A DNA stretch of 64,000 bases from contig CDLV01000007.1 in NCBI GenBank assembly GCA_001244265.2, forward strand, positions 434,001 through 498,000, written 5' to 3'. This document shows, piece after piece, positions 13,077 to 61,386 of this stretch (within the stretch, counting starts at the first letter, position 1; each line of letters opens with the position of its first letter). The notes below the pieces were generated by a model. That model ran no database searches and was not told where the DNA came from. It saw only the letters and a program-made list of their open reading frames with translations. A program made the translations under genes and the position numbers. This stretch comes from Microbotryum violaceum (taxonomy: Eukaryota).

Positions 13077-16000
13077 TGATTAAGCACACCATCATCACCT
13101 GGAACGTGAGGAGGGGCATGGGGGTCCCGGAGAAACGACGTGACATTTACAACTACCTATCCCTTTTCAAAGCATCGGCCATTCTCATACAAGAGCACTT
13201 CATCAGACCGCACCTCTGGCAACTCATCAAGGACGAGTACGAGGGCAAGCTCTTCATCAACCAACATTGTCTGACTCTAATTCCGGCTGACTCCCCCCTG
13301 ATCGACGCCGAGCTCTTGCGCACCCACTCGGCACTCGACGGCCGGCTCCTCGTCACGTCCTTTCGTCTGCGGGGCGACATCAAAATTCTAGAAATCAACA
13401 ACGTTTACGCGCCCGTTGACCCAAAGCAACGAGCGAAATTCTTTGACAAACTCTTATTTCACAAAACACAGAAATCCCACCTCCGACTCCTTGGCGGTGA
13501 TCTCAACGACTGCCCGCGCCCAGAAGTCGATCGGCGGAACCAAAGTCGGCGCGGCCACCACTGGCCAATCCTGATCGGCAAGCTCGACTCGGCCTACACG
13601 GACTGCATCCGCTACAAACACCCCATCACCCCATCCTTCACTCGCCTAATCCCAATCGCAAGCGACCCAACTCCTTCTCCCGGCTTGACTACTTTCTCCT
13701 GCAACGGACACACCAAAAAAGACTCGATCAGGCCTCGACGATCTACGACTATCCCAAGGAGCTTTCCGATCACCGACCGGTCTTGATTGTGCTGGCTCTC
13801 TCAGACGATCCTGATGCGACCCTCCCACAGCTCAGCCTACCTACCACATCAAACCAACTACATCGAATCAACACCACAACCTTTAAGACGGTGGAATTCC
13901 AGCGGATGATGGAAGGATGGTTGGAAGGGGCAAGCGGGGAGGAACCGGTGGGGGAGCTCGAGGTCATTCTGAAGGCGTGCAGGGATAGGGGTGGGGAGAT
14001 GGCGAGGAGGTTGCATCGGGAGCGGACGGAACGGATGGAGTATTTGGTGGGGAGGGTGCAGGATCTGGAGGCGATACCGGAATGGGGGAGGCGGAAACGG
14101 CAGAATGGACAAGGACGTCCGAGGAACTCAAGCGGGCGGTCGAGGAGCGCGCGCGCCTACTCCGGATCCGAGCCCACGTACCCGAGATCGCCTCCGAGGA
14201 ACGACTGTCGCGGCCGGTCCACGCCAAGCTCGCGGCGCGAAACTCGGACTCCAAGATCACAGCACTGCGCTTGAGCAACGGAGAGCTAACGCATGACATT
14301 GATGTCGCTCTTGACCACACGCAGGCGCATTTCCAGCGCCTCTACCACATCGAGCCTCGTGACCCGGACCGCGTCGACCGACTTCGGGACGATTTCCTCG
14401 CGCCGATCAGGGCGGCGCGGACTTGCGACGACCCGCGCTCGGATCCTCTCTTTCTGCGCCGACTCTCGGAATCCAGATCGACTTACTCCAGCGACCAATC
14501 ACCGAGGACGAGGTCGTGGCCGCGATCGGGACGACGCACCCGGGGCGATCGCCGGGACCGTCGGGCGTGCCCTACGAACTCTACCAGACCGCACCCAAGG
14601 CGTGGGCCAAGGTGCTGACCAAGGCCTACAACGCGATGATAGAGCGAGGCTCACTCTCTCCCAAGCAGGGCCAAGGACTCGTGCGCCTCATCTTCAAGCG
14701 ACACAAGAAGAATGCTGATCGCGCCGAACTTTCGGCGTACCGGCCGATCACCCTGCGCGAGTGCGATTACAAGATCTTTACCAAGGTCTATGTCGCCCGT
14801 TTGAACCAGATTCTACCGATCTCCTCCCGCCGCAGCAGCACGGATTCGTCAAGGACCGCCGATCGGCTGACGCTGCACTACACCTTCGTCTCCTGATCGA
14901 GGAAGTTGGCGCGCGCAGGACCGAGTTCCCCGCGGCCGCACTCTTATCTCTTGACCAATCGTCCGCCTACGACCTCGTCGAGCATGACTGGATCTTTGCC
15001 ATCTTTGACGCTCTGGGCGCTCCTGCCACCTTTCTTCGCGTGCTGAGGATGCTCTACTCGGGTGACTCGACCTCGGCCCGCTACATCATCAATGGGTTCT
15101 TGACGGCGCCGGTACGACTGACGTGTGGGCTCGGCCAAGGGGACCCGGCGTCGTCGTCGGTCTGGGACATCGTGTTTCAGCCGTTTCTGGATGCTCTACA
15201 CCGTCGAAACATCGCGCTGAATCTCTCCATACCTGCACTTCATCCGTACCCACAGAGCCGCGCCATTACATCGCTTGCTTTTGCCGATGACGTTGTCGTC
15301 GCCGTCGCGGGCTTGGGGTCACTCAACTTGCTCGATGACCTGGCGCTCGACTGGAGGCATGCAACGAATGGCCGGCTCAACACGGACAAGACGGTCGTCC
15401 TACCGATCGGACGCCGCTGGGACCCGGGGCAACGCCCGCTCGTCGTCAAGGCCGCAGGCGAGTCGCTCGAGTGGATCGGCCTCCCCTTCGACCCGAGCGG
15501 CGACACCGAACTCGCCTACGCGAATCTCATCGAACGCCTCGAGGCGACGCTGGAAGGGGTTCAGCATCGCTGGCTCACACACCACACCCGTGCCTTTTAC
15601 GTCAATCGGTACGCCATCCCCAAGATCCTGCACTTCCTTGCAGCCGACATCCCGCCGCCCGAAGTCGTCAAGAAGCTCGATGACATGCTCGTCGATTTCG
15701 TCCGTGGGGGCAAGGGCAGGACCAGCTACGGCAGAGATATCGTGTTCACAGCCAAGCTCAAGGGGGACTCGGGTGATCAGGATGCAGGACGTCGTGGACG
15801 CGGTTGCGGCACGGATCTGGGACGTTCTTCTCGGCGGTTCGGGCGCGATCTGGCAAGGACTTGCGCGCGTGGCACTCCAGCGAGCTCAGTCCGACCTCGA
15901 CCTGGCCACCGATCTCTGGCCACATCCATCCACTCCCATCCCCAGCGACCTCCATCCCCGATGGCGAGCAGCATTGGGGGTTCCGAAACAGCAAGACGCG

Positions 16001-17169
16001 CAGGTCAACCCGAGGACCTTGACCACCGCGAACCTGCTCGCGCTTCCCACCTTGCTCGGCAGCCTCCACACCCCCATCAGAGGGAGACAGACCATCGACG
16101 CGGTTCATATACCTGACTACCTTCGTCTCCAGGGCTACCCGAAGGTGGCGGATCTCTACCGGCGCGAGTTGTATGCGGGTGGGGGGTTTCACCTTTGGAC
16201 GCCGCCGGCGGATGTGCTCGGCGACAACAGCGAGTACGATCGACGCGGGCTCCCGCAGCGACTGGCAATCGCGGCCTGGTACCGGTTCACTGTCGATCGA
16301 CACAAGAACACGCCCTTGGCGGTGGCGGTGGCGGCAGGACGGCTCAACGTGCCTCCCCGGATCGGCACCAGCGCACCGCTCGAGGCGATTATCCCCAAGC
16401 CCGTGGCCCGCTTCGCAATGGAGCAGCGCCTTCCGGACCCGGTGCTTCCACAGCAGGCGAGCCAGTACAAGCTGCTGAACATGGCTCGACCGTACACCAT
16501 CCGTCGCATCCGCCGGGTCCTGAACGCGAAGGCCTTTACCAACACGCTCGGGCTCAAGGGACCACCGCAGCCGGACGACCTCAGGAGCTTTTGGAAGGCG
16601 GTCAACTCGAAGGCACTGACGGCGAGGGAGAGGGAAGTTTGGTTCAAGCTGATTCTCCGCTTCACCCCGACGCGCAAGCTGCAACACCAACAGAATCACG
16701 ACACTTCTCCCGCGTGCCTCGTCTGCGAGGCGCCGGTGGACGACACCGACCACTACTTTTTCGACTGCGTTGACTCTGGGAACGTTTGGATCGCGGCAAG
16801 GAGCGTGCTCTGCGACGCACTGGGGCTCGACACGATCGACAACACGCATTACACGGCTGTTCAACGCATGTTCGGACTTCCGAAGCTCAAGGCCAGTCTA
16901 CGCGATCAAGAAGGAGCGGGAGGACGATCGAAATATTCACCGGGCTGGTCTTGGAGATGATCAGCAGCGGGAGGTGGGGGATGCAGAAGTGGGGGACGAG
17001 GACGGAGGGTGTTGGGAGAAGGAGGATCATCTTGGAGGAGAGGTTGAAGCTGAGGGCGGGAGGAGCTTGGGGAGGAGAGGGCAGTAGAGGCTGGGTTCGA
17101 CTTTCCCCCACCACCACCACACACACACACCAAACTCTCGTGACATCATTTTCTCCTACTGTACACTAA
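13076..17169 (+). CDS. LINE family A ORF2 (AP endonuclease - reverse transcriptase - CCHC finger), several frameshifts as assembled
   Basis: ITWNVR, LIQEH, NVYAP, GGDLND, SRLDY and SDHRPV (APE); SPGPSG, YRPITL, QHGF, GLGQGDP and AFADD (RT); CLVC...HYFFDC. Confidence 0.9.
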
Positions 17170-17742
17170 ATAGATCGCTTTCATCTTTCATTTGTTACAG
17201 GTTCACCGTTGCGGATCATGGACCATCTCGCGATTTGGCGTCGACTCGGTGTGGCTCGCGCTCTTCGGCTTCGGGGTTCTGAGTCAAGGGAGGGATCAGC
17301 GGACACAGGCAGAAAGTCGGCTTTGAGGGGCCAGGGACTGCCGATGGGGAGGTTTTGAGGGACCTTCACCGCGTCTTGTTGTGACTGAGCAGAGACTTGG
17401 AGCGTCGAGGGTCGTGGTGGTTGCGCAGTCGTGCTCTTGTCTTCGTCTCGACCGAGTGGGAAGTGGCTGTGGGGTGGGCCTTCTGTCGTTAGTACATTTC
17501 TTTTCTTTCTTTTTTTCTCTTCATCTCTCTTTCTCTCTCTCATTAGTCTCCTGGGGGGGAGCAACCGCTTGGCTAGGGCATTTGAATCCGAATCTCGGAT
17601 TGGTGGACTTGGCTCGTTTCTCGCACTTTTGCGGGCGGTTTGTGTTATCATCGTAGTCTTCCATCTAGTTTTTTTCCGTAGGCCAAAACAGGGGGAACAG
17701 GAACTGGGGGCAATATGATGAACGTTTTCTACAAAAAAAAAA

Positions 17743-19577
17743 GTCACAGTTCCAACCATCAAGTCCGAACTCCTTACGCTCCCGAATTGCTCTCGCTTCC
17801 GCCTCGCCTCCCTTCACTCTATGCTGAAGGTGCCAAGCACGCATATGACGATGCGGACGCAGTGGCGAAGTTTGCGCAGATCGCGGACCTGTACTGGAGG
17901 GACGAAGGGAAGGGCTGGGCTCTGGTTGGTCATCGACGCGGGTTCTGGCAGCACTCTAAGGAACCCGCCCTACAGCACGAGCACGTGTGGTCGCGCGTGG
18001 GTCAGTTGCTCAAGGCGAAAGCCTTGCTGCCCAAGACCGCGTTGCGACCTGCTCGGATACCTCTCAAGGAGGCTCCCCGTCCTCGGTGCTTCAACTTCTT
18101 TGGGCTCACCCGACCGTTCACTATTCGCAAGCTTCGTCGGCTTGTGAACGTGGTTCGGTTCCCAGGGAGGGAGGATCGTGTCAAGCGTTTCCGTGATGGG
18201 ACTTCTCAGAGCGATAGGAAGCGCTTCTGGAGATGGCTTCATGACCGGTTTGCGTCTGCTGTGGAGCAGGACACCCACTGGCGGCTCATGTACGACGTGA
18301 CGCCGACGCGCAAGAGGCAGCATACTCAGGGTCATGCCTCTTCGCCGACGTGTCTGTTCTGCGGCAACGATGCAGCGGTCATCGAGACGGTGTCGCACTA
18401 CTTTTTCGAGTGCGCGTACTCGACCAGCTTCTGGGGTGGGGTGCTTCGCATTCTGTTCGACAAGCTGGGCATCGAGGATACCGACGTCGATCCGTCGACG
18501 TTCACTCCGGAGCAGCTGACTATGGGGCTCCCCCTTTTGCGGGGTCGTGGGAGAACGACCTCGAGATGGATGTGGGTTCGGCTGGCCTGCGCGATCGGCT
18601 TCCAGCGGCTGCACCTGCTCCGCTGGCGCGTTCATCAGCGGTTCGAGAAGGACCGCGTCGTGGCCCCTCCCTCGATCCCCAGTGCACTCAGAGCGTTCGA
18701 GCGAGATTTTCTCTCTCGAGCGGGTTTTGTGCCTGGGGCTCGAGATTGGGAGGTGTGATGACCGACGGTTTTTTGTTCTTGGGTGGATCGGCAAGCCAGG
18801 TCGATTGTCTTTGCGTTGGAGGCTTTGTGAAGTTTTTCCCTCTCCTTTCCCCCCTTTTTTTCCCTTCCCTTCCTCTTCTCGTTCCTGTTGCTCGGTTGTT
18901 GACTACGCTTCAGCCACTTTTCCTTTTACTCCTAAGCCGTGTGTTGGATTCCGTTGAATGGTTCGTTCGTTCGCGTTGGTCAAGATCTACGGCATGGCTC
19001 GGGAAGGAAGGTCGCTCGTTTCTGGTCAATATCCTCGCGTCAAGGCGAGGCTCGTTTCGTTGTTCTGGATCGCTTTTCTCTCGGCCCCGACGGCTCAACA
19101 GCCAGCACTCGAGATTCAGCCAAGGGAGGACATCAGGCGCGGTCGGGGTGACGAGTAGCTGGGGCTTGGCTGCGGCCTGTTAGTCCCTGGGGACCTCTAC
19201 CTCCGGCTTCGACCCCCTACCTTGGCCCCTCGGGTGTGTTCCCCTCCTCTCTGTCTTAGTATTCCTGGTTCTCCGTATCCCCAGTTGTGACTTTCTGTAT
19301 ACTCTCCCCCTTCTTTCTCTAGGCGCTCTTGCCTGGTTTTCGAGTATCTTTGCTCCCGCTCTTGGGACGTGAAGCGGCAGCAGTACTCACCGCCCGTTGG
19401 AGTCCGCGTTAGGTGCTCGGCGGGTTTTGATCTGCGCAGCGCTCTTTGCGCGCAGGGGTTTGACTTTCACCCAACTGCTTGCCGTCGTTGCTTTATAACC
19501 TCCTTTAGCCTTTTTGTAGCGGTCCCAGCCAACCCGAAGGATTGCAATTTATGAGCCCCAGTCAAAAAAAAAAAAAA
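17743..19577 (+). mobile_element. 5'-truncated family B copy; its first 12 bp lie at 10663-10674, split off by element A
   Basis: Near-identical to 24839-26812; ends in A14 at 19564-19577. Confidence 0.93.
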
Positions 19578-19582
19578 CGCAT

Positions 19583-20026
19583 GGGAGGGATCAGCGGACA
19601 CAGGCAGAAAGTCGGCTTTGAGGGGCCAGGGACTGCCGATGGGGGAGGTTTTGAGGGACCTTCACCGCGTCTTGTTGTGACTGAGCAGAGACTTGGAGCG
19701 TCGAGGGTCGTGGTGGTTGCGCAGTCGTGCTCTTGTCTTCGTCTCGACCGAGTGGGAAGTGGCTGTGGGGTGGGCCTTCTGTCGTTAGTACATTTCTTTT
19801 CTTTCTTTTTCTCTTCATCTCTCTTTCTCTCTCTCATTAGTCTCCGGGGGGGAGCAACCGCTTGGCTAGGGCATTTGAATCCGAATCTCGGATTGGTGGA
19901 CTTGGCTCGTTTCTCGCACTTTTGCGGGCGGTTTGTGTTATCATCGTAGTCTTCCATCTAGTTTTTCCGTAGGCCAAAACAGGGGGAACAGGAACTGGGG
20001 CAATATGATGAACGTTTTCTACCAAA

Positions 20027-20030
<4 letters not shown>
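19583..20030 (+). mobile_element. 5'-truncated family A copy (3' UTR only)
   Basis: Near-identical to about 17288-17732; ends in an A7 tail. Confidence 0.92.

Positions 20031-20086
<56 letters not shown>
20031..20086 (+). repeat. (CA)28 leader of family B element
   Basis: Perfect dinucleotide repeat. Confidence 0.97.
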
Positions 20087-20088
<2 letters not shown>

Positions 20089-20161
20089 GTGTGTACCGTC
20101 GTGTAGTGTGTACAGTCGCCCACCAACCGCTTCAAGAGCTACAGGACGACGACAAGAAGTG

Positions 20162-21865
20162 ATGCCGGATCCGCCCGGCCCACCCCCGCACCCGCCCAAC
20201 GCTCCGTGGGCTGGTGACGTGTTGAGAGATGAATCACTCAACACGGAAACCCGTGAGACGGTCACTGGAGGAACCGTTAATCCTCCAGCCTGGTCTGCCC
20301 AGGCTTCTCAGGCTCGATTGGACCATGAGAAGTCGATGCAGAAGGCTTTCAAAGCCCTTGGCATCGTACCATCCTCCAAGTCGACCCGCCGGCTGATGGT
20401 ACTGTTGCATGACCCTTCCAGCCCGCCTTCGCAGGCGCCGGCTCTCGCACGAGCTGCTCAAAGGGCGGTACGAAACGACGCGATGCCGGCCTCCAACGTG
20501 ATCCGAGTCATCATGGATGGTACTGGGTCCCCAAGAGGCCCTGTACAGATTGCGCTGCGTAAGCACTTTGGGCTGGCCGAGACGCCATTCATGTTCGCGC
20601 GGCCCGAGGGCGCCGAGCTTGACCCCGAGGTCGAGAAGCTCTTCTCGAAATGTGTGAAGCTGAACCCGATCGTGACGAAGGCAACGAAGAGGTTCCCGAT
20701 TGCTCGTCATATGTACGAGCTCGTGTTCGAATCCGACCAGGCCTGTCTCGAAGCCGCTGCAGCGGGTCCATTCCCCTATCACGGAAAAGAGATGGTCACC
20801 GAGCTCCCGAGTGTTTCCCCCCTAAACCACATCGTCCAGGTGCGATTCACCTTACCCTCCTCTTCCAGCGCGATTCCCGCTTCCGTGCTCCGAAAATCTC
20901 TCGACGCTGCTCTCACTTCCTCCTTCGGCCACGCTGGTTGCACGCAAGGGTATACCCTCATGCAATTACAGCGGGGCCTCGCGGTCGATCCGAACGGTGA
21001 CCCGATGGCCATGACCGAAGACGGGTTCCACTGCGCGTACCTTCGCTTACATGCTGATCTTTTCCAAGGCTCCACCGAGACGCAGAAGGCTGCGCTCAAC
21101 GCCGCCTTGCCACAAGAGATCGAGATCCTGGGCGCCAAGTACGGCTTGCGACACGAATTTGAGACGCACTACTGCGCCGTGTGCGATCGCGCCGGACACC
21201 AGTGGGGGGCTTGCAGGAAGCCGGTTTCGACTCCGGCCACCGCCGCCCCTGTTCCGGGGGCCTCGACTTCGACTTCGACTTCGACTTCGACCACCGGCTT
21301 CCGAGTTGCCGGAAAGAATGGGAAGCACGGTGGGCCTGCCGCATTGAACTCTCGTGCCTCTGGCACGAACATGATCCAGCTGGGACCTCGTGCTAACCCC
21401 GCAGGTGCAGCGACCGGCAACAAGGACGATGCGAACGACGGCGACGGTGACGACGACGACGACGACGGCGAATCGGTCGCTTCGACCGAACCGGAGGGCG
21501 GCGACACTGGGAAAGAGATGTTGACCCGTGCGACCACGGGCCCAACAAAGGAGACGCAGACGACGACAGCGGCGCCCGTTTCGACCCCGACCTCTCCTTC
21601 GCCTTCTACTTCTGCTCCGGCATCGCCTATGTCCGGTGGCACGTCGGAATCATCGGCAACCGCGACGACCTCGATAGCCTCGACGAGTCCTCGACGCCTT
21701 CGTTCGAGCTCGGCACCCGGCAACCGACGTGTCACCCGGGCGGGATCCGCCATGATCCACGGTGCATCAGGGGGTGACGACTCAGGGGGCAACAGTTCAG
21801 GGGGTCACAGGTCCGAGATGACCGAATTCGAGGGGGCGGCGCTGATCCAATTTATTCATGATTGA
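20162..21865 (+). CDS. LINE family B ORF1
   Basis: MPDPPGPPP start, CX2CX4HX4C knuckle CAVCDRAGHQWGAC, disordered tail. Its stop overlaps the ORF2 start (ATGATTGA). Confidence 0.85.
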   Translation: MPDPPGPPPHPPNAPWAGDVLRDESLNTETRETVTGGTVNPPAWSAQASQARLDHEKSMQKAFKALGIVPSSKSTRRLMVLLHDPSSPPSQAPALARAAQRAVRNDAMPASNVIRVIMDGTGSPRGPVQIALRKHFGLAETPFMFARPEGAELDPEVEKLFSKCVKLNPIVTKATKRFPIARHMYELVFESDQACLEAAAAGPFPYHGKEMVTELPSVSPLNHIVQVRFTLPSSSSAIPASVLRKSLDAALTSSFGHAGCTQGYTLMQLQRGLAVDPNGDPMAMTEDGFHCAYLRLHADLFQGSTETQKAALNAALPQEIEILGAKYGLRHEFETHYCAVCDRAGHQWGACRKPVSTPATAAPVPGASTSTSTSTSTTGFRVAGKNGKHGGPAALNSRASGTNMIQLGPRANPAGAATGNKDDANDGDGDDDDDDGESVASTEPEGGDTGKEMLTRATTGPTKETQTTTAAPVSTPTSPSPSTSAPASPMSGGTSESSATATTSIASTSPRRLRSSSAPGNRRVTRAGSAMIHGASGGDDSGGNSSGGHRSEMTEFEGAALIQFIHD

Positions 21866-24800
21866 GTCCCTCACCGTGTTGACGTTCAACGTCCGATCGA
21901 TCAAGAACGCAGTCAACCAAGTCAAAATCATCCGCTATCTCAAAACCCTTCGGCCGGCCCCTGCGGCCATTCTCCTGCAAGAGCACCACCTCAGCTACAA
22001 CGCGTTGCGCGAAGGCTTCGAGATTGCTTGGCCAGGAGCTTGTATTCGTTTCGCACCTCATGTCCTTACCCTTATACCCGATGGCTCACCTCTGGCGGGC
22101 CGCCTCCTCTCCTCTACCCCGGTCGTGTTTGCAGAAGCCCCTCAATTCGACGGTCGGATCCTGCGCTCGGTGTTTCGTCTTGAGGAGCTCGATATCGAGA
22201 TCATCAACATGTATGCGCCGGTCAAGGGGGAAGAACGTCGCGACTTCTACGGGCTCCTGCACTTCACCGCTCCGGGGCCCAAGACTCTTCGGATCTTGGC
22301 CGGCGATCTCAATGATTGTCCGGATGTATCGGTCGACCGAGTGGCCATCACCGATCGCGCTTGGACTCCTGTATCGCACTGGCAGACCTTGCTGTCAAAG
22401 ATCGCATTCAACCCACTCGACACGATCCGACAACTCCATCCCATCACCCCGGCATTCACTCGCCCTCACTACCTTGGTAGGGGGACAAACGAGAAATCTG
22501 CTCGTGGTCGCGGATCGATTATATCCTTGTCCAGCGCAGTTGGGCAAACCGGTTGTTGAGCGCTTCCACACTTTTCGATGCGCCCTGCTCGGACCACAGA
22601 CCTGTAGTTGCGACTTTCGCATTGCCTACATCGAACGCTGATGCCGAACCCCCCTTTCTCTTCCCTCTACGAGCGATTTCATTTCGAGGCTCAACCCAAC
22701 GGTCTTTGACGATCAAGACTTTGTCGCATCGATTCCCGGGTCGTCGACGAGGTCTATCGAAGGCTGGAGGGGACCGTTCCGCTCGGCGACGTCTATGACG
22801 CCGCTCTGCGGGCGGTTGCAGTCGCTGGCCATGCACGATACCGCTCGACTCGTGCCGACATGCGCCGACTGCGGGCCGAGAACCAATCCGTCATGGAGGC
22901 TTTGGAGGCACGCGGTGAGCACATGAATGAGGCCGAGCGCGATGCGTATGCTTTTGCCAAGTCGCGGTTGGACCAGTTGGCGGTAAAGGAGGCACAGTGG
23001 CTGCGCATTCGTGCGCATGTGCCGTCAGTCGACTCGAGGAAGGTCAATCGGCAAGCATTCGCACGCGTCTCAACCGCCGGAGTCGCCAGACGAGCATCGT
23101 CTCGCTGGAGGATGTGGATGGCACCGAGACCGTTGACATGCAGGAGGCGCTGGGCATTGCTTCACGGCACGCACAGTCGCTCTTCACGCCGGACCCAGCT
23201 CGTGGCGACCCGACGAACCCACGTCGGTCCCTGCTCGACCCCATTCGCGCGGCGAAATGCTACGATGACGACCGCTCGGACCCTACGTTCGGTCGTCGGC
23301 TGCCTCGTCAAGCGAGAGTGGCGCTTGACGAGCCCTTCACCCTCCTCGAGGTTGAAGCGGCGTTGAAGAAGACGGATTCGGGGCGATCACCGGGGCCCTC
23401 GGGCATTCCGTACGAGCTCTTCAAGGCGCTGCCAACCTACTTTGCTCCCAAGCTGTTGGATTTGTTCAACTCGATTTGGGAGGGGGGTAAAATGACGGCG
23501 TCCTTGGCAGAGGGGCTGGTGCGGCTTTTGCCCAAGAACAAACCGGGGGCCAATCTGAAATCACTGGGGGCATATCGACCGATCACACTGCGCGAGACAA
23601 CCTACAAGGTCCTCAGCAAGGTCTTGGTGGCGCGACTCAATGGGGTGCTCGGCGAGCTTTTGCCGCCGGCGCAACACGGGTTCATGCCATCAAGACGTTC
23701 AGCAGACGCGGGAAGTCATCTCACTCTCCTTCTCGAAAAACTCAAGTCGCTAGGCACTGAAGTTTTCCCCGAGGGCGCCCTCTTGTCCTTGGATCAGCAG
23801 AGCGCGTACGATCGGGTCGATCACGCATGGATCTTCGACGTCTTCGAGGCCTTTGGCTTTGGTGAGCGTTTCATTTCCCTGCTGCGCGCTCTGTACGATC
23901 CCGAGACTCTGGGGGTGCGCTACCTCATCAATGGGTTCCCCACGGAGTTGGTGCGGTTGCTGTGTGGTCTCGGTCAGGGGGATCCCCTCTCGTTCCCGGT
24001 TTGGAACATCACGTTCCAGCCCTTCCTCGACGCCCTCGTTCGGCGCGGGATCGCGCTCGACCTGCAGAAGGTGTGGCCAGGGGGGCCGCGTGCGCAGCTT
24101 ACGCATCTGGCGTTTGCCGACGATGCTGTGGTGGTGGTGGAGTCACCGGCGGCATTGTCGAAGCTGGAAACGCTGTCGCAGACGTGGTACGAGGCAACCA
24201 ACGGGAAGACCAACACGGACAAGACGCTGGTGCTACCACTCGGACCGAACTGGCTTCGGGACGAGACTGCGCAGGCGCTGCCAACGGTGCAGGAGGGGGA
24301 GAGCTTCAAGTGGTGCGGCTATGCCTTCTTTCGCCACGGTGACTCGAAACTGTTTTGGACCCATGTTCTTGACAGGATCAAGGCCAAGACCCGCGCCGCT
24401 GGAGACCGGACACTTTCGCCGAGTGGGAAGGTCTTCTATGCCAACGCTCACATCATCTCGACGGTCCTCCACGTGCTGTCCTTCGACATACCGCCTCAAT
24501 GGTTCATTAAGGCGGCGGAGACAGCACTTACGGATTTTGTCTGGGGAGGAGCAGGGCGAAATACCGTCGCTCGCGATTTCGTGTTCCAGGCTCGGGAGGA
24601 CGGTGGCTTGGGCTTGATTTCAATCGGCGACATCGTTCATTCGGTGGCGCTTCGATTTTGGGATGCTGTGGCGGGCTCGAACGAGGCGATCTGGGCGCCC
24701 CTAGCTCGCGAGAGCTGGAGGTCCCTCGTCGCTGCGACCCGCGATTTCAGTCCGTGGGGGTTCTTCAGCAGCACGGCTCGGGTCGAGAAGCTGTATCGCG

Positions 24801-25855
24801 ACTCGACGCGCTGGGGGGCAGTCGTTGCAGCTGCCAGGGTCACAGTTCCAACCATCAAGTCCGAACTCCTTACGCTCCCCGAATTGCTCTCGCTTCCGTC
24901 TCGCCTCCTTTCACTCTATGCTGAAGGTGCCAAGCACGCATATGACGATGCGGACGCAGTGGCGAAGTTTGCGCAGATCGCGGACCTGTATTGGAGGGAC
25001 GAAGGGAAGGGCTGGGCTCTGGTTGGTCATCGACGCGGGTTCTGGCAGCATTCTAAGGAACCCGCCCTACAGCACGAGCACGTGTGGTCGCGCGTGGGTC
25101 AGTTGCTCAAGGCGAAAGCCTTGCTGCCCAAGACCGCGTTGCGACCTGCTCGGATACCTCTCAAGGAGGCACCCCGTCCTCGGTGCTTCAACTTCTTTGG
25201 GCTCACCCGACCGTTCACTATTCGCAAGCTTCGTCGGCTTGTGAACGTGGTTCGGTTCCCAGGGAGGGAGGATCGTGTCAAGCGTTTCCGTGATGGGACT
25301 TCTCAGAGCGATAGGAAGCGCTTCTGGAGATGGCTTCATGACCGGTTTGCGTCTGCTGTGGAGCAGGACACCCACTGGCGGCTCATGTACGACGTGACGC
25401 CGACGCGCAAGAGGCAGCATACTCAGGGTCATGCCTCTTCGCCGACGTGTCTGTTCTGCGGCAACGATGTAGCGGTCATCGAGACGGTGTCGCACTACTT
25501 CTTCGAGTGCGCGTACTCGACCAGCTTCTGGGGTGGGGTGCTTCGCATTCTGTTCGACAAGCTGGGCATCGAGGATACCGACGTCGATCCGTCGACGTTC
25601 ACTCCGGAGCAGCTGACTATGGGGCTCCCCCTTTTGCGGGGTCGTGGGAGAACGACCTCGAAATGGATGTGGGTTCGGCTGGCCTGCGCGATCGGCTTCC
25701 AGCGGCTGCACCTGCTCCGCTGGCGCGTTCATCAGCGGTTCGAGCTGGACAAGGTCGTGGCCCCTCCCTCGCTCCCCAGTGCACTCAGAGCGTTCGAGCG
25801 AGATTTTCTCTCTCGAGCGGGTTTTGTGCCTGGGGCTCGAGATTGGGAGGTGTGA
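21858..25855 (+). CDS. LINE family B ORF2 (APE - RT - CCHC), frameshifts in the 5' third as assembled
   Basis: LTFNVR, LLQEH, NMYAP, AGDLND, SRIDY and [36 protein letters not shown] and GGLGL; CLFC...HYFFEC. Confidence 0.92.
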
Positions 25856-26836
25856 TGACCGAGTTAAGTCCTTCCTTCCCATTTTCCTCCCCTCCTTTCC
25901 TCCCTTCTTTTTCGGAGGTCGACTCCTCTTTTAGAAGCTGACTGTCTTGAAACTTGTTGCGCAGTGGAAGGCTGCGCACCTCTCTCTCTCTCTCTCTCTA
26001 CTTTGCGCAGTAGCGGTTTTCGTTCTTGGATGGATCGGCAAGCCAGGTCGATTGTCTTTGCGTTGGAGGCTTTGTGAAGTTTTTCCCTCTCCTTTCCCCC
26101 CTTTTTCCCTTCCCTTCCTCTTCTCGTTCCTGTTGCTCGGTTGTTGACTACGCTTCAGCCACTTCTCCTTTTACTCCTAAGCCGTGTGTTGGATTCCGTT
26201 GAATGGTTCGTTCGTTCGCGTTAGTCAAGATCTACGGCATGGCTCGGGAAGGAAGGTCGCTCGTTTCTGGTCAATATCCTCGCGTCAAGGCGAGGCTCGT
26301 TTCGTTGTACTGGATGGCTTTTATCTCGGCCCCGACGGCTCAACAGCCAGCACTCGAGATTTAGCCAAGGGAGGACATCAGGCGCTGTCGGGGTGACGAG
26401 TAGCTGGGGCTTGGCTGCGGCCTGTTAGTCCCTGGGGACCTCTACCTCCGGCTTCGACCCCCTCCCTTGGCCCCTCGGGTGTGTTCCCCTCCTCTCTGTC
26501 TTAGTATTCCTGGTTCTCCGTATCCCCAGTCGTGACTTTCTGTATACTCTCCCCCTTCTTTCTCTAGGCGCTCTTGCCTGGTTTTCGAGTATCTTTGCTC
26601 CCGCTCTTGGGACGTGAAGCGGCAGCAGTACTCACCGCCCGTTGGAGTCCGCGTTAGGTGCTCGGCGGGTTTTGATCTGCGCAGCGCTCTTTGCGCGCAG
26701 GGGTTTGACTTTCACCCAACTGCTTGCCGTCGTTGCTTTATAACCTCTTTTAGCTCTTTTTGTAGCGGTCCCCTGCCAGCCAACCCGAAGGATTGAAATT
26801 TATGAGCCCCGGTAAACAAAAACAAAAAACACGCGA

Positions 26837-26900
26837 CCTGTCCCAGCCATCTTCAACGATTGCAGTCTATGAGCCCCGGTAAAACAAAACAAAACACAAA
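26837..26900 (+). mobile_element. Degenerate 3'-tip remnant of family B
   Basis: cctgtcccagcc...gattgcagtctatgagccccggt plus (AAAAC)n resembles the family B 3' end (gtcccagcc...gattgcaatttatgagcccc). Confidence 0.75.
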
Positions 26901-27285
26901 GAATGCCGGTCGGAGTTGGCAACTTTGGATCCATCATCGCTGGCTGATGGATACTGTCATTGGATCCGAATTCCTGCGTGCTCGGGGCATGCCACAGATG
27001 GGTATACACATGATTTATATATCACGTCCCTCTGTAGACTCGTGCGATAGTCAGGATCATAACTCTTTAGTAAGCTGTGGCCCGTATGGTCACTGGAGCA
27101 AGTAACCGCAGTGCTCAGTGGCTCTCCACTCCTGCGCTCCGGCCCAGTCCGAGGAATTTGCAGCGAAAGCGCCTGGCGAAGGCCGCCAGTTCACGTGACT
27201 TCCGGGTCACGCCGTGAGCGATCTCGAGAAGCGTCGACTCGCCAACTGAGGCTTCTGCAGCAGCACAACTCGACCCTGAGACGCA

Positions 27286-28969
27286 ATGGTACCAACCGAG
27301 CTTTACCGGCTGGTGATGAACCACCTCTTCAAATCTCAAGGACATCACTCTATTCGTAATGTTCTCACCACATCATCGCCGCACCGAGCCTTGCATTCGA
27401 CGTGCAGGAGAGGAACAACGGCCCCATCGCAGGCAACGACGCCGTCTTCCTCAGCCCCTCTTGAGCGACCCTTGTTGATCCTGGGCCTCGAGTCATCGGC
27501 CGACGATACCTGTGCAGCCGTCATCTCCTCCGACTCTGCATTGACGCAACCGCGCCTCTTGTCCAACATCGTTATCCGCCAGCCCAGTCACGAGCGGTTC
27601 GGCGGGATCCACCCACTTCATGCCCAACATGCCCATGCCCGCAACATGCCTACAGCGATCCAGCGAGCGCTCAAGGAAGCACTTATTACACTGGAGCATT
27701 TGGATGGCATTGCGTTCACAAGGGGTCCAGGGATGATGGGCTGTTTGAGCGTCGCTTGTCACTCGGCCAAAGCGCTCGGTGCTGCAACAGCCAAACCGTT
27801 GATTGGGGTGCATCATATGGTACGTCGCATTGGTACTGCTTGGCTCTCAGTAAAACTTCATCAGATTTATAAGCAAATATACTAAGCTTTGTCTTCGTCT
27901 ATCTTGCACAGCAAGCCCATGCTCTGACCCCTTTCTTGACCTCGGCGATCCCACCCAAATTCCCTTTCCTCACGCTCCTACTTTCCGGTGGGCACACACT
28001 TTTGTTGTTCGCGTCTTCTGAAACTGAGTTCAAGATTTTAGCAACCACGCATGACGAGTCGATCGGGTACGTCCCACACCAAGTCTAAGGATGTCCAGTG
28101 AAAAGCGATGGGAGTCTGATCGACATTTTTTTTTTCTCGGCTTCTCACAGAGCTTCGTTCGATAAAGCTGCTCGAGACTTGGAGATCCCATGGTCCTTGG
28201 GCGCCGGGTCTCCCGGTGCCGCTCTAGAGGCTTTTGCATTCCCTCCCCGACCAAATCCAACAACATCAACAAGAACTGAACTGACGACGTCAACAGACCA
28301 AGATCTAGCCCCCCCTCCAGGTGTGGTGCCCCATTTCTCGCAGCCTTTTCCTCGCCAACTGGCCTTCTCCTTCTCCGGTGCTCGCTCGCAACTGGATCGC
28401 ATCATCGCCGACGATCCGAGTATGGAAGAAGGGAGGAAGAGGCTCTTGGCCAGGTCGTTCATGCAAGCCACGGTCAAACAAGTCGAAGACAAGGTCGCCT
28501 TGGCTCTGGGCATGAAAGAGCCCCGGGGGATGCGCGACGTGAAGCACTTGGTCGTGAGCGGCGGAGTCGCGAGTAATTCGTATCTCCGGACACGGTCAGT
28601 CAACTTCGCACAGAAGATGTTGTGCAGTCTGTGTTCTGATAAGTCTTTTCTTGGGACCTTGACAGGTTGCGAGAGAAACTGGACGATTTGGATCGCCAAG
28701 ATATCGAACTCGTTTTTCCGCCCCCTAACTTATGCACGGGTCAGTCCGGACTCGATGCCATAAACCTTGTTTTTCTGCTTCAGACGCTGATGCAACCCCG
28801 AAAAACTCCACTGCGGTGTCGTTGGCTTCACACTCCAGACAACGCGGCCATGATCGCCAACGTTGGCCTGTCCCGCTTACGGCGTGGCCGACTCGATCCG
28901 TTGGAAGTCATGCCGATCGCAAAGTGGAGCATTGAGGAGTGCGAGAAGGACTTCGAAGACAAGCATTAG
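27286..28969 (+). CDS. QRI7: Mitochondrial tRNA t6A threonylcarbamoyltransferase (Kae1/Qri7/OSGEPL1), multi-exon
   Basis: LGLESSADDT, FGGIHP, TRGPG, GVHHMQAHAL, LLSGGHT, FSFSG, VSGGVASN and CTDNAAMIA motifs; N-terminus resembles a presequence. Confidence 0.93.
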
Positions 28970-29095
28970 GGACTGTCGTTATGCAAAGCAGATGTCTCGA
29001 TCGAATAACAAATGCAACGCGTGATCCTGCGGCGGGGAACCATTCGACCGTTTCCGTTTTATTCTTGATTCTACAACAGAGCAGTAGGCGCTGGA

Positions 29096-30228
29096 TCAAT
29101 GAGGTGTCGGTTTGGAGCCTGTGAATACCATGTGATCAGCTTTCTAACTATGGGTCAGAATGAGGGATGCGTTCAGGGACTGACCATCGACTCGGAGATT
29201 CCTCGTTGCGCTCGGCAACGTGATGGTTGTGCCGTCGAAGTCTTTGGTTACTTTGATCTGACATCCCAGCCGTGATCTGTAAGAGAACCGAACAGAAGAA
29301 TGCTGGGTCAGATGCCAAGCTGGATCCTCGAGCACCACGAAGTCTGCCCTGTCGGCTTGTAAGCAACGTACGTATCTGTCAGGCCGAAAGCGAGATCCAG
29401 CATGTCATTCTGTTCGCCAGAGATGATTGAACGCATGTGGTCAGCACGTTATTTCCTGTATAGACAGAAGAGGCGTTCGCAGGCGTACCTCGTCGTCAGA
29501 AGGCTCCTCGAGCTTGTCATAGACGTCGTCCTCGAGTATGACGTGACATGTCGAACAGGCAACCGATTTCTCGCAGGCAGCTGTCAGTGCCATGAGGTTC
29601 ATTCGCGAGGGATTCGGTGAACAAATTTTGTGAGGAAGACGGACGGGGGAGAATGTGGTCAGCTATCCTATAGTGTAGCGTGATGCGTACGTGCGCTCAG
29701 AATGTACCTTCAATGTCGAGATCATATTCCCACGATATGTCGACAATGTCGTCGCCCTCATTGGCCTGCACAGTCTCGATCTCTCCGTTGGGCTTCTTGA
29801 AGTGCAACGTGATGCTGCGGTCGTGGCAATGAGAAAAAAAGGTCACTTCCTGGGCAGGAAATCACAATGTATGAAGAGGACGAGAATGTTGTGACTTGCC
29901 CTTGCCCATCCTTGGGTCGGCCCTTTCCTCCATGCGAGGTTGCTGTGAGGATCAGATCCCCTTGTTAGCGCAAAGAGCCGAGATCACGAGGATGTGCAGT
30001 ACAAGTAAACGCACGTCGTGCGGCGTGGAAAGAGCGCGAAGAAGTGCCCCTGAAGAAGGTGGTGCGACTGCGATCGGCGACGGTGGCCGCGACGAGGAGC
30101 GGGTGCGAAGTGGTTGCCGATCGGCTCAAGCACGACGAGGCGCGAGCGATGACGGTCGATGGTGCGACATGATGGTTCGAGACCACGTTCGAGACGAGTC
30201 TCGAGCGAGGCAATAACGATCTCAGCAT
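29096..30228 (-). CDS. YAH1: Mitochondrial [2Fe-2S] ferredoxin (adrenodoxin-like), many small exons
   Basis: Spliced translation gives ITLHFKKPNGE...DLDIE-AACEKSVACSTCHVIL...[25 protein letters not shown]...LPSATRN; Arg/Ser-rich presequence. Confidence 0.92.
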
Positions 30229-30449
30229 GGTCGTGTTCGGACGGGAAGCGAGCCTGGAGCGTCAGCGAGTGAGCCGGGCATCGGCTTGGCCGCCGGAGTG
30301 ACGACGATCGCAGACGATCGCACACACAAGTCCCAAACGCGCGGCTCGGCGCGCCTTGGCCTGCTCACACGACCTCCCCCCGACTACGCCGCACACAAGA
30401 CAACGGATAGTATTCGAACCAGATCGGGGCTCGAGCTTCGGGCTCCAAG

Positions 30450-32797
30450 ATGCCGCTCTTGATGAAGGAACGCCTCCAAGGGCAATCGGGCGAGGTGAGC
30501 ACTGCAGTGGTAGCCCCTTTACGCGTGGGGCACAGAGCGGGGACCTGACCGGCCGCTGACCTGATCGATCCATGACCGGCCCTGCAGTACCTTCCTCGCT
30601 TGATCGCGGTCATGTACTGCGTGTTTGACCCGATCGCCGGTCCGACTGTGGTCGAGCAAGTGCCCGAGGGGTCGGTCGCAACAGCGCTGTCAACGTTTCC
30701 CAAGCCCGCACCGACCTCATCCAGCCATCCCCGGGCTGGGGCTGAAACATCGATGGAACGTTCAGCGCTGCTCAACCGACAACGCTCGACCACGAGGGCG
30801 CGATCATCGACGCAGGGCGGTACCGCAACCGACGCGGTCGTGCGCTCCACCTCGAAACAACGCCTCACCGCGACCCCGGTCCTGTTCGACTTCAGCCCGG
30901 TACGAGAGTTCGTCATACCCAAACCCGAACTTTGCGGTCATCTCATCACCAAGGCGACGAGGACGTGCAAGATACTCGGCTTCCCCATCAGGTCCGTTTC
31001 CCACCGCCGCCGCCGTCGCGAAACGATCGGTGGCTCGCTCTAGCTTGCGCACATGGAGCCCCACAAAGCTGACTTCGGTCACTCGGACTCTGCCACCCAT
31101 GCGGCTCTTGGCCCCAATCTTTCGCTCCACAGAATCGTTGACGAGGAAAAGTACAATTCGACACGGTCAATCTACAATCGCAACGCCTTCATCTTCAATG
31201 TGTGCTTCATTTTTGAGCGCGACGCCGAGCTATCCGTGTTTGAACCCGTCGTGCGCAAGGTCGCTCGCACGCTCAGGGTTCTCGAAGTCAGTCGACCCGA
31301 TTCGAGCCTTGTCCAGACAATGAACTGCTGACGTTGTTTCCCACCTCTAGGAATCCTCGTCCTTGCTCTCAGACCCGCCACCTCACTTCTCCATGGGCAA
31401 CTTGCTTGAACAACTCTACATGGACCTCAACAACTTCTCCGAGGCCTCGATCCGCATCGGCGACTTTGAGCTCGAGCTCTTCCTGTCCCCTTTTTATGCG
31501 AATCCGAAACCGATCAAGAACAGCGATGTTCCCCTGGCGGTGTGTGCGCTCGAGCAGATGAAGCATCCGAGTTGGGATGTCACCCTCTACAAGGTTCGTT
31601 GGTCTGCTCCTCCCCGTTCCTCCCGAGCTTACCCGCCCAGCCCTCCGCCCCCCACAGATCTGCAGCTTCATCAACGGCATCAACCACGTCAAGGGCATCG
31701 CTGAGCTCGCCCAGGTCGACCTTCACCTCGCCCGTCTCTCCATTCAACACCTCGTCTTTTACGGTGCCGTCATCATTGTCGACCTGTTCCAGTACACCAA
31801 CTCGTACGCGACCTTGCCCTTGATCGCCGACGTCGTGCACACCATGGACGAGGCCGAGGAAGATGAAGGGATTCAGAACCTCGATTCAGAATGCCAGGCG
31901 TACGTCTACACGGGTGCCATGATCAACCCCATGCTCGCGAGCGCGACCCCTCCAACGGCGACGACGAACTTGGAAGGCTTTTCGGTCGGCTCGCTCCCGA
32001 ACTATCCATCCCCTTCAAGCGCGCCCGTGCCGTTCGCGAATTTGTTGGGCTACTATGCACAACTCCGACCTGGCGTGACGGTCACGCAGTGGTGTGAGAA
32101 ACTCGGCCTGGATGGTTTACCGATCGATGTGCGACGGCTGGTTCAGTTTGGCTGCATCAAAGGCTTCCTGCGGCGGGTCTACACCTACCCCGTCTGGTTG
32201 GACCATCCCAAGTTCCTCAAGCACCGGAACAGGGGGCGCCACGGGGATGACGTCGAGGGTGACGAAGGGACCACTTCATTCTTTCTACCGACCCCAAGCA
32301 ACGAAACGCCTTTGCATTCTGCCATTTCGACCCTGTCCAGGATGGAGACGAATGATGCTTCCCTCCTCGATCCTCTAAGCAGTGGCATCCTGTCAAGGCC
32401 GAATCGATCCAAGACAACATTTCACCCATCAGCAACGCCGGCAAAGACCAGGGCCGAGGTAAGACAGAGTGCTAGAAAGGGTAGAAGTTCTGGATCACCG
32501 GCGACGACGAACGTGCCACCCATTTCTCGCTTCCCGCCTTCTCTGCCGATGATGATGGACGGAACCTATCACACGGACGAGATTTGCGTCAAGTACTCAA
32601 TCAGCTTTAAGCAGCTCGAAGTCATCTTTAGGACATTGGGCAAAGGGCGAAGTGGGAAATACGAGGGGTCGCTCGGAGAGGAGGAACGGGGTGAGGAGGA
32701 GGAAGATGACAACGACGATCTCAGGAGGAGGCGGGACGACGAGAGCTTGCACAGTGGCTCCGACTATGGCGACCGATTGGTCCTTTTGTATGTCTGA
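30450..32797 (+). CDS. NPR2: Nitrogen permease regulator 2 (GATOR1/SEACIT subunit), multi-exon
   Basis: FDPIAGP...QVP, FVIPKPELC, YNRNAFIFN, INGINHVKGIA, DVRRLVQFGCIKGFLRRV and DGTYHTDEIC motifs. Confidence 0.92.
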
Positions 32798-35279: not shown

Positions 35280-35468
35280 TAGTGGTGCTGTGGAGCAACG
35301 ACGACAGGAAAATGGGTGAATGGGAAACCACTGACCGCAAAGAGCGCTGCGCAGATCAAAACTCGCCGAGCACCTAGGAGTCCAACGAGCGGCGAGTCGG
35401 CTGCCGTTTCACACAAGATCGTAAGCAAAGACACCCAACTAGGGAGCACCCAGAAAGAAAGAGTACAC
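35280..35468 (-). mobile_element. Degenerate family B 3' UTR remnant
   Basis: taggtgctcggcgagttttgatctgcgcagcgctctttgc closely matches 19410-19449; flanks are diverged. Confidence 0.8.
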
Positions 35469-35838: not shown

Positions 35839-35900
35839 TTTTTTTTTATTTAAGAAAACTGGGGCACATAAATTGCAATCCTTCCGGTTGGCTGGGACAG
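35839..35900 (-). mobile_element. Family B 3'-tip remnant
   Basis: cctgtcccagccaaccggaaggattgcaatttatgtgccccag followed by an interrupted A tail. Confidence 0.85.
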
Positions 35901-35914
35901 GAGAGCGAGGCCGC

Positions 35915-37011
35915 TTTTTTTTTTGTAGAAAACGTTCATCATATTGCCCCCAGTTCTTCTTCCCCCTGTTTTGGCCTACGGAAAAACTAGATGGAAGACT
36001 ACGATGATAACACAAACCGTCCGCAAAAGTGCGACAAACGAGCCAAGTCCACCAATCCGAGATTCGGATTCAAATGCCCTAGCCAAGCGGTTGCTCCCCC
36101 CCAGGAGACTAATGAGAGAGAGAAAGAGAGACGAAGAGAAAAAGAAAGAAAAGAAATGTACTAACGACAGAAGGCCCACCCCACAGCCACTTCCCACTCG
36201 GTCGAGACGAAGACAAGAGCACGACTGCGCAACCACCACGACCCTCGACGCTCCAAGTCTCTGCTCAGTCACAACAAGACGCGGTGAAGGTCCCTCAAAA
36301 CCTCCCCCATCGGCAGTTCCTGGCCCTCAAAGCCGACTTTCTGCCTGTGTCCGCTGATCCCTCCCTTGACTCAGAACCCCGAAGCCGAAGAGCGCGAGCC
36401 ACACCGAGTCGACGCCAAATCGCGAGATGGTCCATGATCCGCAACGATGAACCTGTAACAAATGAAAGATGAAAGCGATCTATTTAGTGTACAGTAGGAG
36501 AAAATGATGTCACGAGAATTTGGTGTGTGTGTGTGTGTAGTGGTGGGGGGGAAAGTCGAACCCAGCCTCTACTGCCCTCTCCTCCCCAAGCTCCTCCCGC
36601 CCTCAGCTTCAACCTCTCCTCCAAGCTCCTCCCGCCCTCAGCTTCAACCTCTCCTCCAAGATGATCCTCCTCCTCCCAACACCCTCCATCCTCGTCCCCC
36701 ACTTCTGCATCCCCCACCTCCCGCTGCTGATCATCTCCAAGACCAGCCCGGTGAATATTTCGATCGTCCTCCCGCTCCTTCTTGATCGCGTAGACTGGCC
36801 TTGAGCTTCGGAAGTCCGAACATGCGTTGAACAGCCGTGTAATGCGTGTTGTCGATCGTGTCGAGCCCCATTGCGTCGCAGAGCACGCTCCTTGCCGCGA
36901 TCCAAACGTTCCCAGAGTCAACGCAGTCGAAAAAGTAGTGGTCGGTGTCGTCCACCGGCGCTTCGCAGACGAGGCACGCGGGAGAAGTGTCGTGATTCTG
37001 TTGGTGTTGCA
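35915..37011 (-). mobile_element. 5'-truncated family A copy
   Basis: Near-identical to 16680-17742; A10 tail at 35915-35924. Confidence 0.93.
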
Positions 37012-38211
37012 TTTTTTTTTTTTTTTGACTGGGGCTCATAAATTGCAATCCTTCGGGTTGGCTGGGACCGCTACAAAAAGAGCTAAAGGAGGTTATAAAG
37101 CAACGACGGCAAGCAGTTGGGTGAAAGTCAAACCCCTGCGCGCAAAGAGCGCTGCGCAGATCAAAACTCGCCGAGCACCTAACGCGGACTCCAACGGGCG
37201 GTGAGTACTGCTGCCGCTTCACGTCCAAGAGCGGGAGCAAAGATACTCGAAAACCAGGCAAGAGCGCCCGAGGGGCCAAGGTAGGGGGTCGAAGCCGGAG
37301 GTAGAGGTCCCCAGGGACTAACAGGCCGCAGCCAAGCCCCAGCTACTCGTCACCCTGACAGCGCCTGATGTCCTCCCTTGGCTGAATCTCGAGTGCTGGC
37401 TGTTGAGCCGTCGGGGCCGAGATAAAAGCGATCCAGTACAACGAAACGAGCCTCGCCTTGACGCGAGGATATTGACCAGAAACGAGCGACCTTCCTTCCC
37501 GTGCCATGCCGTAGATCTTGACCAACGCGAACGAACGAACCATTCAACGGAATCCAACACACGGCTTAGGAGTAAAAGGAGAAGTGGCTGAAGCGTAGTC
37601 AACAACCGAGCAACAGGAACGAGAAGAGGAAGGGAAGGGAAAAAAGGGGGGAAAGGAGAGGGAAAAACTTCACAAAGCCTCCAACGCAAAGACAATCGAC
37701 CTGGCTTGCCGATCCACCCAAGAACAAAAAACCGTCGGTCATCACACCTCCCAATCTCGAGCCCCAGGCACAAAACCCGCTCGAGAGAGAAAATCTCGCT
37801 CGAACGCTCTGAGTGCACTGGGGAGCGAGGGAGGGGCCACGACCTTGTCCAGCTCGAACCGCTGATGAACGCGCCAGCGGAGCAGGTGCAGCCGCTGGAA
37901 GCCGATCGCGCAGGCCAGCCGAACCCACATCCATTTCGAGGTCGTTCTCCCACGACCCCGCAAAAGGGGGAGCCCCATAGTCAGCTGCTCCGGAGTGAAC
38001 GTCGACGGATCGACGTCGGTATCCTCGATGCCCAGCTTGTCGAACAGAATGCGAAGCACCCCACCCCAGAAGCTGGTCGAGTACGCGCACTCGAAGAAGT
38101 AGTGCGACACCGTCTCGATGACCGCTACATCGTTGCCGCAGAACAGACACGTCGGCGAAGAGGCATGACCCTGAGTATGCTGCCTCTTGCGCGTCGGCGT
38201 CACGTCGTACA
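37012..38211 (-). mobile_element. 5'-truncated family B copy lacking both 3' UTR intron-like segments
   Basis: Near-identical to 25386-26812 minus two segments; A15 tail at 37012-37026. Confidence 0.93.

Positions 38212-61355: not shown

Positions 61356-61386
<31 letters not shown>

Follow-up and report, generated by a model that had tools for sequence, protein, structure and literature searches.

The stretch of DNA analyzed (the window) covers 64 kb of the Microbotryum violaceum genome. The genes surrounding the elements described below are fungal in style, and include F-box/WD40, YTH, TsaD/Kae1, NPR2, CorA, TAF6, CHORD and HSP70 genes. A strong match to PF10712 ('NAD-specific glutamate dehydrogenase') at 60688-62325 (+) is on the strand opposite the HSP70 gene, which occupies 60751-62628 on the minus strand. 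We take PF10712 to be a known spurious family representing the antisense strand of HSP70, and the match at 60688-62325 not to be a gene. The window also contains copies of two LINE families, A and B. Three copies of family B are distinguished by the presence or absence of two segments in the 3' UTR, which are referred to as introns 1 and 2. The features needed for the following analysis are:

20098-26828 (+), longest copy of family B, with introns 1 and 2 both present; delimited by self-BLAST, Pfam matches and the A-run at the 3' end, the 5' limit being approximate
20108-21865 (+), ORF1, 585 aa, without a Pfam family
21846-22559 (+), apurinic-type endonuclease part of ORF2, a weak match, in a frame that differs from the reverse transcriptase (RT) part in the longest copy
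22931-25855 (+), RT and zinc-knuckle part of ORF2 (RVT_1, zf-RVT), closed by the stop codon TGA at 25853-25855
25863-26013 (+), putative intron 1, GTTAAG...TAG, containing a (TC)11 tract as well as CTGAC, which lies 72 nt before the 3' end; weak by host standards
26479-26567 (+), putative intron 2, GTGTGT...TAG, in which GTGAC lies 32 nt before the 3' end; present in the longest copy and copy 1, absent from copy 3
26812-26828 (+), A-rich 3' end of the longest copy, placed by alignment
17743-19577 (+), copy 1 of family B, without intron 1 and with intron 2; 5'-truncated at the equivalent of 24839, ending in A14, directly behind a family A poly(A)
37012-38211 (-), copy 3 of family B, without either intron; 5'-truncated at the equivalent of 25386, with junctions at 37735/37734 and ~37268/37267, ending in A15
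14719-17742 (+), long copy of family A, with RVT_1 and zf-RVT ORFs at 14719-16960
19583-20030 (+), 5'-truncated family A fragment, 450 nt
35917-37011 (-), 5'-truncated family A fragment, 1095 nt

In the longest family B copy, which starts behind a (CA)n run at ~20031-20097, the ORF 22997-25855 matched the Pfam families RVT_1 (9.2e-22) and zf-RVT (2.7e-06), both above their cut-offs, and the match of the ORF at 21858-22559 to Exo_endo_phos (4e-04, 20.7 bits) fell below the curated cut-off of 24.5. The best solved relative was human LINE-1 ORF2p (2.3e-28, versus 9e-19 for R2), atlas neighbors are named LINE-1 ORF2, and all family B copies end in an A-run. By these sequence features, family B is an L1-like, APE-type LINE with a poly(A) end.

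For comparison with the window, four sequencing runs (X2, X5, X16 and X17) were used, all of them as assembled contigs and not as reads; only X17 behaved as RNA. Where the runs cover the positions concerned, they indicate that the longest copy is not intact, being one base short at three places: behind 22737 and 23037 according to all four runs, and behind 22648 according to three of them. Restoring the three missing bases gave a frame of 1125 codons running from 22481 to the ORF2 stop. The endonuclease part at 21846-22559 is still out of frame after this repair, so that the endonuclease and the RT are set apart by yet another frameshift or by some other cause.

Comparison of the window with itself resolved how the copies are arranged. 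On the plus strand the order is family A, poly(A), family B copy 1 (17743-19577), poly(A), the 450-nt family A fragment (19583-20030), poly(A) with (CA)n, and the long family B copy. On the minus strand it is family B copy 3 (38211-37012), poly(A), the 1095-nt family A fragment (37011-35917), and poly(A). The interval 19583-20030 was considered as the 5' end of family B and rejected, as it closes with a separate poly(A) (...TTTTCTACAAAAAAAAAA) and is a 3' fragment of family A; a matching piece precedes copy 1, 17285-17748 being equal to 19580-20038. An internal deletion or a large splice joining 20038 to 24839 was ruled out for copy 1 on the same ground, the upstream piece being a family A fragment; since 19583-20030 belongs to family A, copy 1 is a plain 5'-truncated copy.

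Both family A fragments lie directly behind a family B poly(A), and copy 1 of family B lies directly behind a family A poly(A). These arrays may have arisen either by insertion of the two families into each other's A-tails, or from chimeric cDNAs formed by template switching. Diverged copies (~79-80% identity) of the last 55-66 nt of the family B tail were found at 26843-26897 (+), adjoining the poly(A) of the long family B copy, and at 35842-35907 (-), behind the family A fragment that comes after copy 3. It seems that older family B tails, or sites beside them, serve as landing places for new insertions. A diverged, old family B-like fragment at 35294-35462 yielded no alignment for the part preceding the end of intron 2, and was uninformative.

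The 3' UTR of family A contains CT-rich, intron-like GT..AG segments of its own, at 17488-17546 and 19784-19840, and also at 17095-17200; they read GTTAGTACATTTC...CTCTCATTAG and GTTCGACTTTCC...TTTGTTACAG. They are kept in every family A copy in the window that reaches them, and therefore offer no contrast of presence and absence. A 35-nt tandem duplication (CTTGGAGGAGAGGTTGAAGCTGAGGGCGGGAGGAG) is present in one family A copy (36536-36595, minus strand) and not in the other (17096-17117, plus strand).

The earlier note on this DNA had described, in the 3' UTR of family B, a segment of 151 nt with fixed GT...AG boundaries, containing GCTGAC and a (TC)n tract, and exactly missing from both truncated copies. 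Direct reading of the letters bore out this description in every part. The segment, intron 1 (25863-26013, plus strand, GTTAAGT...CAGTAG), contains GCTGAC and a tract that is (TC)11. It lies in the 3' UTR, since the ORF2 stop precedes it, with 7 nt between the stop codon and its first base. Across it the longest copy reads GTGTGATGACCGA before the donor, GTTAAGTCC to GCGCAGTAG from the first to the last letters of the segment, and CGGTTTTCG after the acceptor. At the corresponding site copy 1 passes from GATGACCGA directly to CGGTTTTTTG, with its junction at 18765/18766 and CGGTTTT downstream, and the junction of copy 3, on the minus strand at 37735/37734, is identical to that of copy 1. The boundary cannot be slid in either direction, because the last exon base is A and the last base of the segment G, and the first base of the segment is G and the downstream base C. 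The segment is thus GT..AG on the sense strand of the element, with no alternative register. Its ends carry neither a target-site duplication nor a repeat.

Alignment of the three family B copies within the window revealed a second large indel, intron 2 (89 nt, GTGTGTTCC...TTCTCTAG, that is GTGTGT...TCTAG). It is retained in the longest copy and in copy 1 (19234-19322, 99% identical), and missing from copy 3 only. Its boundary can be shifted by a single G in each direction, and of the three registers that result, one is GT..AG. Introns 1 and 2 are the only indels of more than 10 nt among the three copies, and both are compatible with GT..AG. The copies represent three states: both introns present (longest copy), intron 2 only (copy 1), and neither (copy 3). 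An alternative donor, GTTAGT, is located 55 nt upstream of the intron 2 donor (giving 26424-26567), and would use the same acceptor and branch-like motif.

Copies 1 and 3 come from separate cDNA insertion events, and neither is a duplicate of the other, as their truncation points (equivalents of 24839 and 25386), their 5' flanks and the neighbors of their tails all differ. The family A fragments that trail them are of unequal length (450 versus 1095 nt). Both copies show the hallmarks of target-primed reverse transcription, a poly(A) end and 5' truncation, together with a deletion bounded by the element's own donor and acceptor. Target-site duplications cannot be read for these copies, because they sit in or next to the tails of other LINEs. 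Intron 1 is exactly absent from both of these processed copies, and copy 3 lacks intron 2 as well.

Such absences could in principle result from deletions at the level of DNA or of reverse transcription, by end joining, replication slippage or template jumping, with the GT..AG ends arising by chance. To estimate this chance, every deletion of 60-160 nt that the 973-nt UTR allows was enumerated; 535 of 86,153 (0.62%) were compatible with GT..AG in any equivalent register, corresponding to 0.0062 per event and ~4e-5 for both. The UTR was also scanned by rule for introns of 50-200 nt with a GTNNG[TC] donor, a YAG acceptor and a branch-like motif 12-45 nt upstream. Only two candidates, with a common acceptor, were found: intron 2 to the base, and the form 26424-26567 that begins at the alternative donor GTTAGT; intron 1 fails the rules. 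The last 40 nt of both introns are 75% pyrimidine, versus 59% in the remaining UTR. Deletions free of microhomology do occur, and the weak splice signals of intron 1 would be in keeping with such an origin. Slippage and template jumps, however, usually use microhomology, of which there is none at intron 1, and the identical junction recurs in two independent copies. Together with the low chance values and the coincidence of intron 2 with one of only two predicted introns, these observations make deletion without splicing highly improbable.

The element introns were compared with host introns removed in the RNA run. From the X17 contig across 27226-32673, introns were accepted if they read GT..AG or GC..AG on one strand; 4 of the 15 joints listed (of 18) had no canonical reading and were dropped, leaving 11. 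The four dropped joints are probably indels between species. The 11 host introns are 64-127 nt long, with G at +5 in 10 and a CAG acceptor in all 11; NTRAY occurs within 60 nt of the 3' end in 9 of the 11, at a distance of 3-48 nt. One of them, at 29815-29899 (minus strand), has GC..AG ends and is confirmed by the X17 RNA contig. The same contig joins genes on opposite strands, which implies that neighboring transcripts overlap.

Against this set, intron 2 is host-like in its extended 5' splice site (GTGTGT, with G at +5), in the position of GTGAC at 32 nt and in its length of 89 nt, and departs only in its TAG acceptor. Intron 1 has A at +5 (GTTAAG), the same TAG acceptor, a length of 151 nt that exceeds the host range, and as its sole NTRAY a CTGAC 72 nt upstream. 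The TAG acceptor thus distinguishes both element introns from all 11 host introns, a small sample. Judged by the signals of the 11 host introns in the window, intron 1 would be a weak intron. Its GTTAAGT might, we presume, pair in the manner of GTAAGT if a single T were bulged out.

A self-splicing (group I or II) intron was also considered. No Rfam match better than E 0.32 was found in 25500-27000, and neither intron folded better than its shuffles; as far as Rfam and folding tell, self-splicing is excluded. In the minimum-energy fold of intron 1, CUGCGCA pairs with UGCGCAG before the acceptor and (UC)11 is looped out, at an energy no better than that of shuffled sequences (z -0.58). Such a fold would shorten the path from branch to acceptor and hide an upstream CAG, which at this stage is only an idea.

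A private insertion of intron 1 into a single copy would have argued against splicing. Instead, a contig of run X16 (contig 8, 2060 nt, 24623-26683) spans both introns, with 14 differences from the window, and at four positions (T 26021, G 26223, C 26316 and C 26362) it matches copies 1 and 3 and not the longest copy; both introns are thereby found on a consensus-like copy. A contig of run X17 (contig 10, 22649-25879), from a sister organism ~6% diverged in host exons, enters intron 1 by 17 nt, and the donor region therefore exists in that organism. A metagenome search with the 27 nt preceding intron 1 gave 0 matches.

The opposite order of events was also weighed, in which an intron-less ancestor resembling copy 3 gained segment 2 (as in copy 1) and then segment 1 (as in the longest copy), through insertion or duplication of CT-rich sequence with fortuitous splice-like ends, so that the copies would sample three successive master lineages. 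With three copies, a history of two gains is no less parsimonious than one of two or three losses. The surrounding UTR is CT-rich, and an exon stretch at 26074 starts with GTGAAGTTTTTCC, resembling the start of intron 1. The ends of the segments, however, show no target-site duplication or repeat, and outside family B no further copy of either intron was found in the 64 kb, apart from (TC)n matches; the dispersed copies and terminal duplications of an introner or other small mobile insertion are thus lacking in the window. In the shared UTR, the longest copy has 11 private substitutions (excluding 3 alignment artefacts at the intron edge, 26013-26016), and copies 1 and 3 have only 4 and 3; the longest copy also has the three private 1-nt deletions behind 22648, 22737 and 23037. 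The copy that carries both introns is the most decayed of the three in the window, and an intron-bearing contig with consensus letters exists in X16. By these counts, the intron-less copies are young and an intron-bearing, consensus-like form exists; the low numbers of private changes in the intron-less copies do not fit a simple order of late gain. Stepwise gain would furthermore require all three forms to have been active side by side at near-identity, the copy with both introns and the copy with neither being 100% identical over 477 nt, and would leave the exact sense-strand GT..AG ends as a coincidence occurring twice. On the sequences compared, a single alternatively spliced master would explain the data more simply than three co-existing master lineages, and we regard stepwise gain as improbable.

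Mis-assembly of a multi-copy repeat might likewise have produced either the introns or the intron-less junctions. The element is indeed multi-copy, with a summed contig depth in run X5 (DNA) of 244-3817, versus 33 in single-copy flank, a figure that is not a copy number. The intron-bearing form is nevertheless present independently in X16 contig 8, and the window contains the intron-less junction in two copies whose contexts, orientations and private substitutions differ. An assembly artefact is extremely unlikely.

The four runs were compared for spliced transcripts of the element. The RNA character of X17 is apparent from the removal of 11 canonical host introns; X2, in comparison, contains an unspliced host intron at 31594-31657 and has DNA-like depth ratios. 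No joint 25862/26014 or 26478/26568 occurred among those listed (15 of 18) in the four runs, and the element contig of the sole RNA run stops at 25879. A contig containing such a junction would be ambiguous, since intron-less DNA copies exist and could be transcribed. Contigs of X17 and X5 end near the start of intron 1 (at 25879 and 25870, respectively), and two from X5 begin at 26014; contig ends of this kind probably reflect branching of the assembly graph, and were not used as evidence. Between X17 and the window, the LINE RT region (22649-25879) differs by 3.2% (104 of 3231 letters) and the host exons (27226-32673) by ~5.9% (170 of 2894), and the element is thus more alike between the two organisms than are the host genes.

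The earlier note had proposed that both spliced and unspliced RNAs of the element were retrotransposed. At the level of sequence, this proposal is well supported by the second GT..AG segment, the independence of the copies, the host-like intron features and the X16 contig. We consider it probable that family B carries two inefficiently spliced U2-type (GT-AG) introns in its 3' UTR, and that spliced and unspliced RNAs have both been reverse-transcribed. Among the observations that lead to this reading are the exact, unslidable GT..AG absence at an identical junction in two copies, and the second GT..AG segment with its independent pattern of presence and absence.

In the proposed mechanism, transcription of the element would extend across the 3' UTR as far as the poly(A) site; the RNA contig from the sister organism covers 22649-25879. 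The host spliceosome would then remove intron 1 and intron 2 independently from a part of the transcripts, as suggested by the splice signals and the three states, with the suboptimal signals accounting for partial and independent removal. Whichever isoform is bound would be copied by target-primed reverse transcription from the poly(A) end. As both introns lie behind the ORF2 stop, every isoform would code for both proteins and keep the poly(A) end, and poly(A)-ended family B copies exist in all three states, those of copies 1 and 3 being 5'-truncated. The introns would be inherited only through unspliced RNA, so that they could persist only while splicing removes them inefficiently or reverse transcription favors unspliced templates; unspliced RNA would thus be common among the templates. 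An intron can survive in an RNA-replicating element only if its signals are weak.

The closest precedent is provided by the SpIREs of human LINE-1, in which spliced L1 RNA has been reverse-transcribed and integrated, leaving copies that lack exactly the intron (Larson et al. 2018, PMC5860796). As in the SpIREs, the RNA of a LINE (which family B is by sequence) appears to have been spliced at its own donor and acceptor, with the intron exactly missing from copies. SpIRE splicing is located within the 5' UTR or between the 5' UTR and ORF1, which damages the promoter or ORF1p and renders the copies dead ends. Family B differs in having short, fungal-type introns behind the ORF2 stop, so that coding capacity is kept, and in that its two introns behave independently. 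For L1, splicing has been demonstrated in RNA; in family B, the putative splicing is read from genomic copies.

Spliceosomal introns have also been reported, according to Maxwell et al. (2006, PMC1636488), in transcripts of Tad (a LINE-like element of Neurospora), L1, kangaroo-1, Penelope and Athena. Like family B, these are retroelements with spliceosomal introns in their transcripts, and one of them is a fungal LINE. The TART introns described there are in antisense transcripts, in contrast to the GT..AG ends of family B, which are on the sense strand.

Retention of introns after retrotransposition is known from Penelope-like elements (Arkhipova et al. 2003, as described in PMC8557442), in which, as would be the case in family B, a UTR intron of a retroelement persists through rounds of retrotransposition. 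According to that source, these elements encode a GIY-YIG endonuclease, their unusual mechanism is thought to explain the retention, and the intron is in the 5' UTR and overlaps the promoter. Family B, by contrast, is an ordinary APE-type, poly(A)-ended LINE, for which retention would be best explained by inefficient splicing.

The further view of the earlier note, that an intron in an element replicating through RNA is unusual, holds only in part, as the SpIREs and the introns of Tad, L1, kangaroo and Penelope are in print. A limited literature search found no description of introns in a LINE of Microbotryum or another basidiomycete, nor of 3'-UTR introns in a fungal LINE. Judged from the sequence, the observation is well beyond chance, and most likely constitutes a clean, though not unprecedented, record of retrotransposon splicing.

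A functional lead is offered by spliceosome-coupled RNAi (SCANR) in Cryptococcus neoformans (Dumesic et al. 2013, described in PMC5851062). In that account, the transposon transcripts of a basidiomycete carry poorly spliced introns, and the weak signals of intron 1 are what the model needs. For family B, read from sequence alone, the likeness may serve as a lead, and does not imply membership. Microbotryum lychnidis-dioicae is reported to have core RNAi genes (PMC4469406).

As to the role of the introns, it is a guess that they are tolerated or favored, with intron-bearing transcripts being better expressed in intron-dependent basidiomycetes; equally, by analogy with SCANR, it may be guessed that weak introns could mark the transcript for spliceosome-coupled RNAi. 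A more elaborate scenario, which we think rather unlikely, is that, in this basidiomycete, taken to be intron-dependent and RNAi-proficient, the transcript must contain an intron in order to be expressed or exported, that intron-less progeny are poorly expressed dead ends, and that the weak introns are sensed by spliceosome-coupled silencing. The proportion of copies with and without introns would in that case serve as a genomic read-out of a conflict between splicing and replication.

If the splicing reading is true, the genome preserves a history of how the element's RNA was alternatively spliced, in which each dead copy fixes the isoform of its source. The spliced RNAs would stay competent, as the introns lie behind the coding region, unlike those of human SpIREs. 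The efficiency with which each intron is removed from reverse-transcribed RNAs would become a question that can be asked of genome data alone. It would also be testable whether active full-length copies always keep their introns, which would point to a benefit, through intron-dependent expression, or a cost, through spliceosome-coupled RNAi.
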